From the NCBI GenBank assembly GCA_018653365.1, contig JABIAG010000003.1, positions 32,001 to 96,000 on the forward strand: a stretch of 64,000 nt of DNA, in the 5' to 3' direction. The DNA comes from Candidatus Woesearchaeota archaeon. Its GTDB lineage: Archaea > Nanobdellota > Nanobdellia > Woesearchaeales > JABIAG01. Below the pieces are notes generated by a model. That model was not told the origin of the DNA. It saw only the letters and a list, made by a program, of their open reading frames with translations, and made no database searches. This document shows, one piece after another, positions 45,776-50,093 of this stretch (position 1 is the first letter of the stretch; every line of letters starts with the position of its first letter). The position numbers and the translations under genes were made by a program.

Positions 45776-45925
45776 GGGCCCATAGCTCAGTCTGGTTAGA
45801 GCGCTGAGTTTAAGAGGCAACTCTTATTCGCGCAAGTCTTATATGATGTTTTTGGTTGCAATGAAAAAATGCCAAGAATACTCTAAGCCAGCCAGAGGTC
45901 CGGAGTTCAAATCTCCGTGGGCCCA
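45776..45925 (+). tRNA. tRNA-Ile(UAU) with two introns (29/30: 45807-45835; 37/38: 45844-45889)
   Basis: Acceptor GGGCCCA/TGGGCCC; T arm CGGAG-TTCAAAT-CTCCG; both introns form BHB motifs; spliced anticodon arm CTGGT-CTTATAA-GCCAG. Confidence 0.85.
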
Positions 45926-45930
45926 TACAT

Positions 45931-46019
45931 GCGGTAGTAGTGTAGTGGTTTAGCATCGGTCGTTGCCAATTAAAAGCAAAAACGATTGGACCCGAGTTCA
46001 AATCTCGGCTACCGCACCA
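45931..46019 (+). tRNA. tRNA-Gly(GCC) with a 13-nt canonical intron (45969-45981) and encoded CCA
   Basis: GCGGTAG/CTACCGC acceptor; GGTCG-TTGCCA|A-CGATT; BHB helix TTGC/GCAA. Confidence 0.92.
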
Positions 46020-46050
46020 TTTTTTTAAAATAATTCTGTATTTTTAGTTT

Positions 46051-46149
46051 CCATTGGACACGCGTTGTCCAGTGGGCAGAGAAGGACTGTACCCTTTGAA
46101 TCCGGGCGTTTCAGATGTTTAATTTTCAAGTTTTCCACTGGACAAGTCC
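46051..46149. repeat. Three CCA(C/T)TGGACA boxes (middle one inverted) upstream of LAGLIDADG gene 1
   Basis: CCATTGGACA 46051-46060; TTGTCCAGTGG 46065-46075; CCACTGGACAAGTCC 46135-46149. Confidence 0.85.
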
Positions 46150-46188
46150 CGCCCTAAGGTTTTTAAAAGAGATAAGAATTACTTAAGG

Positions 46189-47166
46189 ATGAGAACTCCT
46201 GGAAGCCGCATCTTTGAAACAAGAATAAAACTAAATACAATTGATTGTAAAGCGTTCATAGACTGTTGTAAGTGTGAATCAAAAATGTCTTGGAAAGATT
46301 TAGCCAGATTATTAGATGTATCTGAGCATACAATCAGAAATGATTGGCGAAGAGGGAGATCAACAATACCCAATTCGAGATTTAATAAACTTAAGGAATT
46401 AGTTCCAAAGTTCAATTTTCACGAGTTTGAAACTCTTTCTAAGAACTGGGGGCAAAGTATGGGTGGAAAAAACACTGCATGTAAATTGCCTAAAATAAAG
46501 ATCCCCCTCTCAGGTTCCAAGAATCTTGCTGAGTTGTTTGGTGCTATGTTGGGTGATGGTTGTATTTATAGCAATGGTCAGTCATTAGTGATTGCTGGAA
46601 ATTATAAGCTTGATGTGGATTATATTAATTATTTAAAGCGTTTGTTTTTGGATCTGTTTGCAGTGCAACCTAAAATTTATAATAAATCAGGTTCGTTGCG
46701 GCTTATAGTTAACAACAAACGAATTTGTGACTTTTTTGAACAAATGGGCTTTAATAAAGGTAGAAAAAAAGATTCTAATATCAAAATTCCTTCCATTTTC
46801 TTTGATGATGGCCGCTTACTCATTTTGTGCTTGAGGGGGCTTTTTGATACAGATGGAGGAGTTTATTCACACCCAAATTGTGGAATAATGTTAGATATTA
46901 CTTCAAAAATTCCTTCCTTATTAAACTCAATAAAAATTGCTTTCAATCAATTAAACTTTGAGGTGGGTTTAACCACTAATAGAATTCAATTATTTGGCTT
47001 TAAAAAAGTTAATGCTTTCTTTACTTTTATTGGGAGTAGCAATCCTCGAAACTTTATTAAACTACAAAATTTTAAATCTAAAAGTTATGTCCCTTCAACG
47101 AAACAAATGGAAAGACTTTTAAAACATAATGGAAAACCTGTTAAAATAAATGGGCTCATGGTTTAG
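46189..47166 (+). CDS. Free-standing two-motif LAGLIDADG endonuclease with N-terminal HTH
   Basis: SWKDLARLLDVSEHTIRNDW (HTH), WGQSMGG, LAELFGAMLGDG, CLRGLFDTDG, IGSSNPRN. Confidence 0.9.
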   Translation: MRTPGSRIFETRIKLNTIDCKAFIDCCKCESKMSWKDLARLLDVSEHTIRNDWRRGRSTIPNSRFNKLKELVPKFNFHEFETLSKNWGQSMGGKNTACKLPKIKIPLSGSKNLAELFGAMLGDGCIYSNGQSLVIAGNYKLDVDYINYLKRLFLDLFAVQPKIYNKSGSLRLIVNNKRICDFFEQMGFNKGRKKDSNIKIPSIFFDDGRLLILCLRGLFDTDGGVYSHPNCGIMLDITSKIPSLLNSIKIAFNQLNFEVGLTTNRIQLFGFKKVNAFFTFIGSSNPRNFIKLQNFKSKSYVPSTKQMERLLKHNGKPVKINGLMV

Positions 47167-47271
47167 TGGCTTGCGACTAATAAAAGTCGTCCATGAATGA
47201 CAGCGCCCTTACATGGCAGAAGTGCTTATGAAAGGCGTTAATCCCCGGTTCGAGTCCGGGTGGGCCCACCA
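47152..47271 (+). tRNA. tRNA-Val(UAC) with a D-loop intron (47172-47196), a canonical intron (47214-47232) and encoded CCA
   Basis: GGGCTCA/TGGGCCC; GCGCC-CTTACA|A-GGCGT; BHB helices GTGG/CCAT and relaxed CTTA/TATG. Confidence 0.88.
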
Positions 47272-47280
47272 TTTTCATTT

Positions 47281-47358
47281 GCCCCTGTGGTGTAGCCCGG
47301 TCAATCATTCCGGATTTTCGATCCGAAGACTCGAGTTCAAATCTCGGCAGGGGCGCCA
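47281..47358 (+). tRNA. tRNA-Glu(UUC), intronless, encoded CCA
   Basis: GCCCCTG/CAGGGGC; CGGA-TTTTCGA-TCCG; TCGAG-TTCAAAT-CTCGG. Confidence 0.93.
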
Positions 47359-47416
47359 TTTTTTATCATATTTTATCAGAAACATTTTTAAATGAATCGT
47401 TAGTTCTTAGATGTAG

Positions 47417-47518
47417 ATGAAAAGAAGTTCCCGTAGATGGAAGAAGAAAGGACAAATGCGTTGGAAGTGGCAACGTAAACGTATGAAGAAAGAACGTAAG
47501 AAACGTCAATTGAGATAG
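47417..47518 (+). CDS. rpl41e: Ribosomal protein eL41 (33 aa, not in the ORF track)
   Basis: MKRSSRRWKKKGQMRWKWQRKRMKKERKKRQLR, like the long Thermococcales form. Confidence 0.85.
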   Translation: MKRSSRRWKKKGQMRWKWQRKRMKKERKKRQLR

Positions 47519-47588
47519 TTCTATTTTATTTTTTTATAATAATAAAGTTTATTAACTATTATTTCTATTATTTGCTTGAGGTGATATT

Positions 47589-47801
47589 ATGGGAAAAACT
47601 ACAGTTAAGGTTGAAACATTTAATGCTGCTGCAGGCGGTAAAGTCATTCTTGCGATTAATAAAGGTAAATCAAAGCAAAAAGTTGTTGTTAGTGCAGCAC
47701 AATTTATTGGTTGGCTTAAAGATCAATTTAAACCAAAAATGTCTGATAGGGAATTAGAAAAAATGGCTAAAGACTTAGGTGTTAAGTTAGCTCCTGCTTA
47801 A
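47589..47801 (+). CDS. Small basic hypothetical protein
   Basis: Strong SD GAGGTGA; 70 aa. Confidence 0.7.
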   Translation: MGKTTVKVETFNAAAGGKVILAINKGKSKQKVVVSAAQFIGWLKDQFKPKMSDRELEKMAKDLGVKLAPA

Positions 47802-48091
47802 GTCATTCTAATGCTGTTAGCAAACATTGTGTAGCCTGGGTGAGGTTCCTGTCTCCATCCCGTGCACGTACCTTCTTGTGTTAACATCGATCTTAGCGAT
47901 TTAGGCAGTTGATAAGGTCTTTCAACGGTAGTTTTACGGAATTCAGCTCTTCTTGGATGTCTTGTTTCTTCTACAACTTCTAAAAACCATTCACCCACAC
48001 GATTCCACCTATCTACTAATTCTCTATTTGATCTTTGTTGTGCTAGAATTTTTGGTGAGGGTTGTTGTCCGCCCTGTATGTATCCTTTCAT
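47798..48091 (-). CDS. Hypothetical protein
   Basis: 97-aa ORF with a TATA-like element upstream; no motif. Confidence 0.4.
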   Translation of the reverse strand: MKGYIQGGQQPSPKILAQQRSNRELVDRWNRVGEWFLEVVEETRHPRRAEFRKTTVERPYQLPKSLRSMLTQEGTCTGWRQEPHPGYTMFANSIRMT

Positions 48092-48127
48092 TCTTGTTGA
48101 GAATCTTTATGTGTTTATATTGTTTTT

Positions 48128-48586
48128 CTAGATTTCGTTTATATTATAATCTTTCACGCTTTCATTATCATCTGCGAATGTAAATGTTGCTTCTATTGTT
48201 TTTCCTTGTAATAAGTAAGGCATCCAGTGGGTGTCTGTTTTCCACATCTTATCTAATTGAAGGGCATTAAGGTCAAACCATTCTACAGTCATTTCTTCAC
48301 TTTCTGTTGGTTCACCAGTATACATCTTTGCTACAAATAGATGTACTTGTTGTTTCCATTCGGGTTTTTGTGGAAAGGTAAATATTATGTTTCCTCTGTT
48401 TTCCAGGTTTGTAACTTTCACTCCTGCTTCTTCTTCTACTTCTCGTATTGCTGCTTCTTCTATGCTCTCGCCCTCTTCTTGTTTTCCGCCAAATCCATTA
48501 TATTTGCCTGCGCCAAATCCGCGTTTTTTCATTCCTAATAGAACTCTGTTTCCATCAATAATTAAACATAATGTTTTTTGCATCAT
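48128..48586 (-). CDS. Nudix hydrolase, MTH1-like 8-oxo-dGTPase
   Basis: LLGMKKRGFGAGKYNGFGGK, Nudix box AIREVEEEAG, ESEEM, MW..D..W. Confidence 0.9.
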   Translation of the reverse strand: MMQKTLCLIIDGNRVLLGMKKRGFGAGKYNGFGGKQEEGESIEEAAIREVEEEAGVKVTNLENRGNIIFTFPQKPEWKQQVHLFVAKMYTGEPTESEEMTVEWFDLNALQLDKMWKTDTHWMPYLLQGKTIEATFTFADDNESVKDYNINEI

Positions 48587-48632
48587 TTTATTTTTTATCT
48601 GATAAAGTGTTCAAAAATCTTTGATTTTTGTA

Positions 48633-49037
48633 TCATTTCCATAATCCCGCATCCACGAGTGCATCTTTTACACTCTTAACAGTATTTAATTCTTTTATTT
48701 CATTTAGTGTAAAGAATTTTGCTTCTGATAAATCATCACTTGCTTTTATTGTTGGATCGTTTGATTTTGCTAAGTGAAAGAATACTATTGCATGATAATT
48801 TCCAGGAGTGTTGATCACTTCTTGATGTCCAAGTTGTTTTACAATCTCAACATCCATTCCGGTTTCTTCTTTTATTTCACGAATTGCTGCGTCTTGTATT
48901 GTTTCCCCCCAGTCTACTCCTCCTCCGGGGATAACCCACATACCTTCGCAGTTTGTTTTATTTCGTCGTCCTAACAATACTTTGCCTTCGTGTTCGACTA
49001 TTACTGCGGATGTAATTCTTGGTTTTGGTTCTTCCAT
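48633..49037 (-). CDS. Nudix hydrolase (ADP-ribose pyrophosphatase-like)
   Basis: WVIPGGGVDWGETIQDAAIREIKEETG, ASDD. Confidence 0.9.
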   Translation of the reverse strand: MEEPKPRITSAVIVEHEGKVLLGRRNKTNCEGMWVIPGGGVDWGETIQDAAIREIKEETGMDVEIVKQLGHQEVINTPGNYHAIVFFHLAKSNDPTIKASDDLSEAKFFTLNEIKELNTVKSVKDALVDAGLWK

Positions 49038-49057
49038 GCGTATTTCAAAGAATACTT

Positions 49058-49840
49058 CTATAAAACTTTTTTGTAATTAGAAAATAGTTTGTTTAGGATT
49101 TTCTTTCTTTCTTCAATTGTGGTTTTAGGTGGTAAATATCCTAACTTTTGCCACACGGCATGTCGTGTTTGATGTCGGGGATTGTTTGAACCAATCAAAT
49201 CAAACCATTTTTCAATTTCAGCAATTTTTCTGATTCGTAATCTATAAGAATTATTGATCTTCCTGTTACATTTGATGCCCGCTTTCTGTTTAAGTGAAAC
49301 TTTAGATTCAATTCCTAATTTATTTAATAAGTAAGAACTTTGTTCTAATAGTTGTTTTGAACAAGATACTATTGAGAGTTCAGGATGGTAATTGTATGTT
49401 CGCTTCCATTCTGTTGATGTTTTGGCTCGTGACTTATCGCACCAAAAAGAGCCATCTGTGTCAAACAACCCTCGTAAAAACGCTTTTATAACTTGTTTAT
49501 TTTGAGTTTTTAATATTGAAGTTGGTATTGTGGCATTCAAACATTTTTTTCCTTTTTGAAATCCTAGCTTCAATGCTTTTGCAATTATTTTTTTTCGGTA
49601 TGTGAAAATGCCATAAACTTTCCAGGGGATAACTTTTTTCGGGGTTACCTGAATAAAATGTTTAGAAAACAGTTTTGAAAGGAAGTCATCATAGTAGTCT
49701 TTATCTTCGGTAGGGCTTCCCATTATGTAAAATCCTTTTTCTCTGTTTTCAATCCATCCATCGCCCGTAAATGCCCCCAAGATCTCAGCAATTTCTGGGT
49801 GGTTTAAAGAACTTTTGGGTTTTTTAGTATTCATTTTCAC
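49058..49840 (-). CDS. Free-standing two-motif LAGLIDADG endonuclease
   Basis: IAEILGAFTGDG, AFLRGLFDTDG, IGSNNPRH; start may be ATG 49834. Confidence 0.9.
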   Translation of the reverse strand: MKMNTKKPKSSLNHPEIAEILGAFTGDGWIENREKGFYIMGSPTEDKDYYDDFLSKLFSKHFIQVTPKKVIPWKVYGIFTYRKKIIAKALKLGFQKGKKCLNATIPTSILKTQNKQVIKAFLRGLFDTDGSFWCDKSRAKTSTEWKRTYNYHPELSIVSCSKQLLEQSSYLLNKLGIESKVSLKQKAGIKCNRKINNSYRLRIRKIAEIEKWFDLIGSNNPRHQTRHAVWQKLGYLPPKTTIEERKKILNKLFSNYKKVL

Positions 49841-49885
49841 TTGTTTAAATGAATAATAAAAACCCTCTTTAAATATTCTCGGCTA

Positions 49886-49920
49886 GGACTTGTCCAGTGC
49901 CGCATGGAATTGTCCAGTGG
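49886..49920 (-). repeat. Two direct CACTGGACAA(G/T)TCC boxes upstream of LAGLIDADG gene 2
   Basis: Plus strand GGACTTGTCCAGTGC 49886-49900 and GGAATTGTCCAGTGG 49906-49920. Confidence 0.85.
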
Positions 49921-49932
49921 TAATTAAATTGA

Positions 49933-50093
49933 TGCGGGGAACAGGATTTGAACCCGCGTAGGCACTAAGCCAGTAGATGGCTCACGGTAAGCACTTCATC
50001 GACTTTCGTCTCATTACTCAATAACTTGAGTTTGGGTGTCAGCGCCCCTTTGGCGTCAAACGCTACCCCGTTTGACCGCTCCGGCATCCCCGC
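49933..50093 (-). tRNA. tRNA-Leu(CAA) with two introns (30/31: 50032-50062; 37/38: 49979-50024)
   Basis: GCGGGGA/TCCCCGC; long variable arm; spliced GTAGA-CTCAAGA-TCTAC; BHB helices GGGT/ACCC and CTCA/TGAG. Confidence 0.9.

Follow-up and report, generated by a model that had tools for sequence, protein, structure and literature searches.

Why should two LAGLIDADG genes on opposite strands each stand beside an intron-bearing tRNA gene, and why should both be preceded by the same short box? The question is posed by positions 45931-50093 of the window, the whole stretch of 64,000 nucleotides that was analysed (C2:32001-96000), which belongs to an archaeal genome of 1.09 Mb, 34% G+C and three contigs (G000). 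The reading we prefer, to which we assign a probability of roughly 60%, is that the box is part of a promoter module of a repair gene set and that both LAGLIDADG genes are free-standing homing endonucleases which pair with tRNA introns. A bolder version, possible rather than probable, would make such free-standing enzymes the vehicle of short tRNA introns, with the intron as both immunity and passenger and the enzymes tied into an SOS-like regulon that contains RadA. The module was scanned for in 41 related genomes, and orthologues and introns were counted in 301 genomes of the order; G001 and G002 belong to the same genus as G000, and G004 to the same family. The boundaries of tRNAs were taken from Rfam and from alignment to intron-less relatives.

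Two LAGLIDADG genes in a tRNA-rich block

The features on which the argument turns are the following.

45931-46016, plus strand: tRNA-Gly(GCC), upstream neighbour of the first endonuclease cassette (Rfam tRNA, 46.5 bits)
46051-46075, both strands: distal inverted box pair, CCATTGGACA, cgcg, TTGTCCAGTGG (sequence inspection)
46136-46171, plus strand: predicted promoter module of the 325-aa gene (one of nine genome-wide matches to a position weight matrix, PWM; score 49.5)
46189-47166, plus strand: free-standing two-motif LAGLIDADG endonuclease gene, 325 aa (Pfam LAGLIDADG_3, E 6e-9)
47152-47268, plus strand: tRNA-Val(TAC) (aligned with the G001 copy and with that of G002, which has no introns)
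49058-49840, minus strand: free-standing two-motif LAGLIDADG endonuclease gene, 260 aa from GTG, with an ATG at 49834 (Pfam LAGLIDADG_3, E 1e-12)
49865-49920, minus strand: predicted promoter module of the 260-aa gene (PWM match)
49933-50093, minus strand: tRNA-Leu(CAA) with two introns (Rfam 31.1 bits; alignment with G001 and G004)

Both proteins match LAGLIDADG_3 and a Pfam search found an intein splicing domain in neither, in agreement with the original prediction for this locus, which had described two free-standing, opposite-strand LAGLIDADG genes. The intron-bearing tRNAs that it placed upstream were likewise recovered: tRNA-Gly(GCC) has a 13-nt intron (45969-45981), and tRNA-Leu(CAA) has a non-canonical intron at 30/31 (50032-50062) and a second by the anticodon loop (49978-50023). 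At the level of sequence, each protein carries two motif helices, each ending in a catalytic acidic residue. In the 325-aa protein D123/G124 and D220 are invariant across a 22-sequence alignment, and in the 260-aa protein (P0002) the first motif reads GDG and D127 of the second is invariant among eight aligned orthologues. The AlphaFold2 model of the 325-aa protein (pLDDT, the predicted local distance difference test, 89.5) consists of an N-terminal helical domain, a disordered linker and a LAGLIDADG core with the pseudo-dimeric alpha-beta-beta-alpha-beta-beta-alpha fold. Foldseek matches this model to I-Tsp061I, I-DmoI, PI-PfuI and the TliVMA intein (E 2e-9 to 1e-6; template-modelling score 0.68-0.71, normalised by target length), and WhiA (8dy7_I) is also among the matches. 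Of the N-terminal helix-turn-helix (HTH) once proposed for this protein, the helical domain stands, being predicted with confidence for residues 12-83, while the HTH assignment has weak Pfam matches only (E about 2e-3). Each of the two genes has the look of an active homing endonuclease of patchy distribution.

Comparison of empty and filled tRNA loci, which had been suggested as a check, was informative at both sites. The G001 counterpart of the plus-strand locus consists of an intron-less tRNA-Gly, 68 nt and tRNA-Val, with neither an endonuclease gene nor boxes, and the G002 site is likewise empty, its boxes absent and its tRNA-Val without introns. At the minus-strand locus, the tRNA-Leu(CAA) genes of G001 and G004 have no 30/31 intron and no adjoining LAGLIDADG gene. 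These empty sites (G001/G002 and G001/G004) mark the cassettes, including their promoters, as insertions into a conserved tRNA-rich block.

The gaps between tRNA and endonuclease gene hold all the boxes of the window, three in the plus-strand gap, two of them inverted, and two direct copies in the minus-strand gap. Exact CACTGGACAA occurs four times, at 46065-74 (-), 46136-45 (+), 49890-99 (-) and 49910-19 (-), and a CATTGGACA copy at 46052 is the inverted partner of that at 46065. One and the same 14-mer, CACTGGACAAGTCC, stands at 46136-46149 (+) and at 49886-49899 (-), in each case 12 nt ahead of TTTAAA, so that the description first given of two to three boxes per gap, a shared 14-mer and no box elsewhere in the window proved accurate. 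Ahead of the 325-aa gene stand, in this order, the proximal box, CACTGGACA(AGTCC), a G+C-rich spacer of 15 nt and a TATA-like TTTTTAAAAGAG (46160-46171); the ATG comes 18 nt past this last element, so the mRNA is probably leaderless. The 260-aa gene has a distal box (49906-49920) and a proximal box (49886-49899), direct copies 20 nt apart, then a 15-nt spacer and a TATA-like ATATTTAAAGAG (49865-49876).

A promoter module shared with repair genes

The genome has 16 copies of the 9-mer, where order-3 Markov simulations give an expectation of 3.3 (maximum 7), and by the same simulations the box followed by 13-19 nt and a TATA box is found nine times against 0.3. The 16 copies fall at nine loci, each with a G+C-rich spacer of 15 nt and then a TATA box after its last copy, and a 38-nt PWM retrieves exactly these nine genome sites with scores of 37-51, the best non-member reaching 17.9. 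Judged from these regularities, CACTGGACA, often doubled, together with the 15-nt G+C-rich spacer and TATA is a rigid promoter module. Six of the nine modules lie ahead of free-standing LAGLIDADG genes, a count made up of four open reading frames (ORFs) with clear LAGLIDADG_3 matches (325, 260, 283 and 210 aa), one of 264 aa with a weak match, and one of 370 aa that is included even though profile searches gave it no LAGLIDADG match. The remaining modules head an 81-aa ORF with the radA operon, an NTP-transferase with a 1576-aa Lhr-type helicase that contains an intein (NF010338, 1156 bits) and counts the ligase-associated DNA-damage-response DEXH helicase among its relatives, and a 57-aa micro-ORF.

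The module stands at six of the seven free-standing LAGLIDADG genes of the genome, and six of the seven also have a tRNA T-arm motif no more than about 320 nt away (p = 1.3e-6), only 7.6% of the genome being within 500 nt of one. With the empty same-genus sites and orthologues in ten families, this bears out the idea of a tRNA-associated, mobile-looking gene family.

Several of these loci have features of their own. The Lhr-type helicase gene (C1:413586-418316, -; L148:287-5017) has an intein with its own LAGLIDADG domain, and the one promoter thus drives a selfish endonuclease of another kind along with a repair gene. Three module-driven LAGLIDADG genes, L004 (C1:719261, -), L006 (C2:126405, +) and L007 (C3:42381, +), share a 150-200-nt leader starting GAGCCTCGCGC-RMAACTC, unlike the two window genes, both of which appear leaderless. 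The seventh free-standing gene (C1:458150-458790; L147; 212 aa) has no module and has a multi-intron tRNA-Leu-like gene within about 30 nt downstream. The micro-ORF (C1:142239; L036:1613-1786; also L015, L016, L084, L090, L069) is conserved, at about 46-63 aa and with the motif IDLSQKTIxxLFYxQI. In relatives the micro-ORF precedes sua5/tsaC; in G000 a 426-aa opposite-strand gene lies between micro-ORF and sua5, and in G013 a zinc-ribbon-like micro-ORF occupies the corresponding place at sua5.

With six of nine modules ahead of LAGLIDADG genes, and with LAGLIDADG the commonest class in relatives, the box might be a cis element dedicated to this family, an autoregulatory operator, an element end or a cleavage target, as the original prediction proposed. 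The extra inverted box pair and HTH-like domain of the 325-aa gene would suit this role, as would WhiA among its fold matches; I-TevI acts as a repressor at its own promoter, and WhiA is a transcription factor that arose from a LAGLIDADG protein. However, the box also heads the radA and Lhr-helicase operons, and hef, uvrB and nuclease genes in relatives; it is thus common at unrelated promoters, which the prediction had itself named as evidence to the contrary. In G004, G008 and G040 the module is present ahead of radA, hef and uvrA-like genes, while PF14528 finds LAGLIDADG domains in these genomes only within very long, intein-type frames and none that is free-standing, which disfavours a free-standing LAGLIDADG protein as the reader of the box. 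Those same-genus genomes that keep the module, too, are without an orthologue of either protein. The box is missing from the empty sites, which argues against a cleavage target, and the fixed 15-nt distance to TATA is a feature of promoters rather than of element ends. We regard a dedicated element as highly improbable.

The module in related genomes

The pattern CAYTGGACA-N16-WTWTAA, which represents the 15-nt spacing class, was found at 84 sites in 22 of the 41 related genomes, a lower bound that misses lineages with 13-nt spacing, and the reversed pattern as a control gave one match. A second spacing class, with 13 nt between box and TATA and a CACTGGTCA box variant, is seen at the orthologue loci L110 and L113-L116. 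All 75 sites outside G000 were taken and their first genes classed by clustering and Pfam, as follows.

At least 13 sites: LAGLIDADG first genes, several with N-terminal HTH_3
9 sites: radA operon, mostly behind an 80-120-aa ORF
8 sites: sua5, with or without the micro-ORF
7 sites: BRO-N
4 sites: RNase_H_2 exonuclease
3 sites: Hef
3 sites: UvrA-like, named from the N-terminal motif only
3 sites: tyrosine integrase
3 sites: Cas4/PD-(D/E)XK nuclease
2-3 sites: radical-SAM + HhH
1 site each: UvrB, AP endonuclease, ribonucleotide reductase, VRR-NUC, DUF4186, HTH_10

The module marks a recombination and repair gene set across an order of small-genome archaea, and a literature search for a promoter motif of Woesearchaeota or DPANN repair genes returned nothing relevant. 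The 474 kb examined on viral contigs, in the surroundings of their LAGLIDADG genes, contained no module. Copy number differs greatly among genomes, with 17 in G013, 9 in G019, 8 in G039 and 4 in G020; the G013 copies are near-identical 31-mers ahead of many HTH-LAGLIDADG and BRO-N genes, which suggests a recent expansion of promoter-bearing selfish genes there.

Spacers resemble one another more within genomes (identity 0.56) than between them (0.33), a difference reached in none of 1000 label permutations. Because spacers are genome-specific, recognition probably extends past the 9-mer into the spacer, and duplication of promoters within a genome could contribute to the signal. Such spacers are what co-evolution with one protein would produce, and with the rigid spacing to TATA and the two TFB genes of G000 they would also suit an extended core-promoter element for a TFB/TBP variant, that is, a constitutive promoter class. 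Most module-rich genomes, however, possess a single TFB gene (G013, G019, G039, G020, G021, G026), so that a dedicated TFB paralogue cannot be the general reader, and the coherent set of repair, recombination and mobile nuclease genes fits regulation better than a generic strong promoter. We think a constitutive promoter class unlikely.

Regulation by an Orc1/Cdc6 protein, reading the box through an origin recognition box (ORB)-like core, CCACTGG, had been put forward as an alternative; it would recall Orc1-2, which governs the DNA-damage response of Sulfolobales. The box has TCCAGTGG in common with classical ORB cores, one copy (46132-46147) reads TCCAGTGGAAAA on the opposite strand, and G000 has two Cdc6_C genes. 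In Sulfolobus, Orc1-2 is a proven regulator of the damage response, and its motif is a different hexamer (PMC6061795). The GAAA flank is not conserved among box copies. The ORB-like repeats at the orc1-1 origin, which also has an AT-rich stretch, are TTTCCAAATGAAA and TCTATTGGAAA and lack TGGACA; neither orc1 gene of G000 is preceded by a module, all nine modules being promoter-proximal to other genes. A second Orc1 as reader is disfavoured by module-rich G013, G019 and single-contig G020, with one Cdc6_C gene each. Orc1 control therefore gained no support here, and we consider it rather improbable. An HTH_10 protein encoded behind one G021 module, and present in 10 of the 41 relatives, was rejected as the regulator, being absent from G000 and its family.

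In archaeal promoters a site at a fixed distance upstream of the TFB recognition element (BRE) and TATA is typical of activators, and by this analogy the box may serve activation rather than repression.

The 260-aa endonuclease and the tRNA-Leu(CAA) intron

Some 190 nt separate the 30/31 intron from the start of the 260-aa gene, which puts a free-standing endonuclease gene within recombination distance of an intron that has no endonuclease of its own. Orthologues occur in nine other genomes of the 301 (54-64% identity), each in another family; the ten orthologue-bearing genomes thus represent ten families, with no others in the genus or family of G000 and a next tier at no more than 39% identity. 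At all eight loci having upstream DNA the orthologue sits directly 3' of a tRNA-Leu(CAA) with the 30/31 intron, and the box module is present at six of the eight. The intron was recognised in 44 genomes by a strict pattern and in G260 by eye, and an intron-less junction in 57. All ten orthologue-bearing genomes are among the 45 intron carriers and none among the 57 (Fisher p = 1.5e-4, a test that ignores kinship, the ten genomes being of ten families); in one, G168, intron and orthologue lie on different contigs. An endonuclease always accompanied by the intron, intron-only genomes in plenty, and no orthologue beside an intron-less allele are the pattern that would be expected of collaborative homing. 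On present alignments each partner tRNA, Leu(CAA) and Val(TAC), has an extra intron that is missing in endonuclease-free relatives. Exon bases 27-28 (AT, AC, GT, GC) covary, by eye and unscored, with the intron 3' end (ATCC, GTCC, ACCC, GCC), as expected of the exon-intron helix of a splice motif.

The LAGLIDADG genes might instead be domesticated host repair nucleases or regulators, inherited vertically with frequent loss, in which case tRNA clusters would be merely tolerant sites and the introns unrelated. Orthologues are only 6-9 points less conserved across families than RadA (57-64% versus 63-71%), the genes belong to a host regulon, and no close relative of the 260-aa protein was found on viral contigs, where matches do not exceed 35% identity and the module is at none of the loci. 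Set against this are a distribution of one genome per family in 10 of 301 with none in the same genus, a position kept strictly beside one tRNA isoacceptor, and the intron-bearing allele in ten of ten orthologue genomes with no intron-less one. Moreover, endonuclease divergence is uncorrelated with that of RadA (Mantel r = 0.09), one genome pair being more alike in the endonuclease (71%) than in RadA (62%), and two orthologues have in-frame stops (G168, G120). Empty sites in relatives, patchiness, decayed copies and incongruence with RadA are marks of mobility, and domestication appears a doubtful account.

The 325-aa endonuclease and tRNA-Val(TAC)

The last codons and TAG stop of the 325-aa gene are nucleotides 1-15 of tRNA-Val(TAC), which has introns in the D-loop (47172-47196) and in the anticodon loop (47214-47232). 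The D-loop intron begins 6 nt past the endonuclease stop codon and is specific to G000 as against G001 and G002. The sole fairly close homologue among the 301 genomes, in G065 (40% identity), also ends inside a tRNA-Val(TAC), and the D-loop of that tRNA has an intron at the same position. The conserved partner of the plus-strand gene, so far as these loci tell, is accordingly placed downstream, in tRNA-Val(TAC), not in tRNA-Gly. The pairing first proposed thus holds for the minus-strand gene and tRNA-Leu; for the plus-strand gene the tRNA first named is a neighbour, not the conserved partner.

Distant homologues at six loci, L128 (G065), L039 (G013), L041 (G031), L040 (G039), L131 (G132) and L129 (G248), have no box upstream. 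They have a copy of about 20-25 nt of the 5' end of the downstream tRNA directly before TATA, and the ORF ends inside the real tRNA; these cassettes look like insertions with a duplicated tRNA 5' part. No duplicated tRNA-Val 5' fragment was found upstream of the 325-aa gene itself (local alignment score 16, shuffle mean 14.6).

A possible mechanism

In the preferred reading, a candidate host DNA-binding factor would dock on the box and part of the spacer and, at a fixed distance from TATA, control the recruitment of TBP and TFB. The gene set would thereby be co-regulated, probably on DNA damage or recombination demand. The endonuclease would cut tRNA alleles without the intron, in or close to its insertion site, and a chromosome that carries the intron would be protected. 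RadA-dependent repair would then copy both the intron and the gene for the enzyme, in the manner of collaborative or trans homing, and a host repair promoter would put the nuclease in the cell alongside the recombination machinery it needs.

Several observations weigh against this scheme. The 30/31 intron is found without the orthologue in 35 genomes. The orthologues are old (48-74% identical to each other), intron similarities do not track them, and no recent co-transfer of intron and endonuclease was found among the orthologue comparisons. The link between the two may reflect hitch-hiking, the gene having been inserted once, long ago, into an allele with the intron and co-converted with it since, and not protection of a cleavage site. 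The minimum-energy fold of pre-tRNA-Leu gave no interpretable splice motif for the putative 30/31 intron. Two of the eight orthologue loci (L109, L111) are without the box, their genomes having the module elsewhere, and in G050 a decayed homologue of the 325-aa gene, module retained, abuts an intron-less tRNA-Val. Related genomes, finally, are not statistically independent.

Comparison with known systems

Collaborative or trans homing is described in phages, where F-CphI is paired with a psbA group I intron of cyanophage S-PM2 that contains no ORF, and MobE of T4 with the nrdB intron, whose I-TevIII is defunct (PMC2790892, PMC6083498). The arrangement here is similar in that a free-standing endonuclease gene lies beside a gene with an endonuclease-less intron, occurs only with the intron-bearing allele, and would be expected to move with it by gene conversion. 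It differs in its intron, a short one in an archaeal tRNA that presumably does not splice itself but is excised by the splicing endonuclease, in its cellular archaeal host and in its LAGLIDADG enzyme, the cleavage by which is predicted. T4 SegB is a free-standing GIY-YIG homing endonuclease in the T4 tRNA gene cluster with no tRNA intron beside it; it shares with the present genes the free-standing position within a tRNA cluster, whereas these are LAGLIDADG genes of an archaeon with tRNA introns at hand.

In predicted fold and in both catalytic acidic residues the proteins resemble I-DmoI, I-Tsp061I, PI-PfuI and the TliVMA endonuclease, from which they are set apart by being free-standing and not lodged in an rRNA intron or an intein, by a host regulon promoter and, in one case, by an N-terminal HTH-like domain. 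The combination of LAGLIDADG scaffold and HTH recalls WhiA of Gram-positive bacteria, which has lost the catalytic residues and has its HTH at the C-terminus; here, in contrast, both acidic positions are fully conserved, the HTH lies at the N-terminus, and distribution is patchy, with no same-genus orthologue, unlike a domesticated regulator of the WhiA type.

The bacterial SOS regulon is defined by the LexA box and includes recA, uvrA, uvrB, dinD and genes of prophages and mobile elements. The predicted regulon is like it in gene content, with a recombinase, UvrA/B, BRO-N (DinD-like), integrases and selfish nucleases on one element, and unlike it in that the element lies upstream of BRE/TATA and not over the promoter; no LexA homologue turned up, and none was sought. 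To our knowledge only one archaeal DNA-damage network has been defined, that of Orc1-2 in Sulfolobales. It likewise has a short conserved motif upstream of archaeal repair-set promoters (PMC6061795), while motif, spacing and lineage differ: CACTGGACA with its spacer takes the place of the hexanucleotide, radA, hef and uvrA/B are members here, a second Orc1/Cdc6 paralogue is not general, and damage induction is something we infer. The regulon predicted here has the defining features of neither family. That one rigid module stands at radA, hef, uvrA/B and Lhr and at genes of mobile nucleases suggests a second archaeal network, distinct from that of Orc1-2, in uncultivated DPANN-type archaea, and the box could serve as bait for its regulator.

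Reviews acknowledge the route by which archaeal tRNA introns reach new positions as an open question, and a 2026 preprint on Asgard tRNA introns leaves the route of arrival open (10.64898/2026.10.13.758758); neither the review text nor the preprint speaks of homing or of LAGLIDADG. The strict pairing of a single endonuclease lineage with one tRNA isoacceptor and with one non-canonical intron position, kept through ten families, suggests a concrete, testable route for the spread of such introns; we found no publication of either the endonuclease-tRNA link or the promoter module.

Neighbouring genes and further observations

Upstream of tRNA-Gly, 45776-45925 (+) is a 150-nt tRNA with two introns, whose anticodon loop, CTTATAT, suggests tRNA-Ile(UAU). 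Intron-aware calls by ARAGORN were discarded, since multi-intron tRNAs were mis-joined and tRNA-Leu was named Gly; its "tRNA-Phe" with a 1407-nt intron is false, being the 5' half of the 45776-45925 tRNA and the 3' half of tRNA-Val. An archaeal-type RNase P is present in the genome (Rfam search). In G002 (L050; C30:1-540) the segment with two tRNAs, the equivalent of 45776-45925 and tRNA-Gly, is inverted relative to its flanks. Beside tRNA-Glu, 47417-47518 (+) is a small, very basic ORF (MKRSSRRWKKKGQMRWKWQRKRMKK...) that resembles ribosomal protein L41e and has DNA matches in synteny in G001, G003 and G004.

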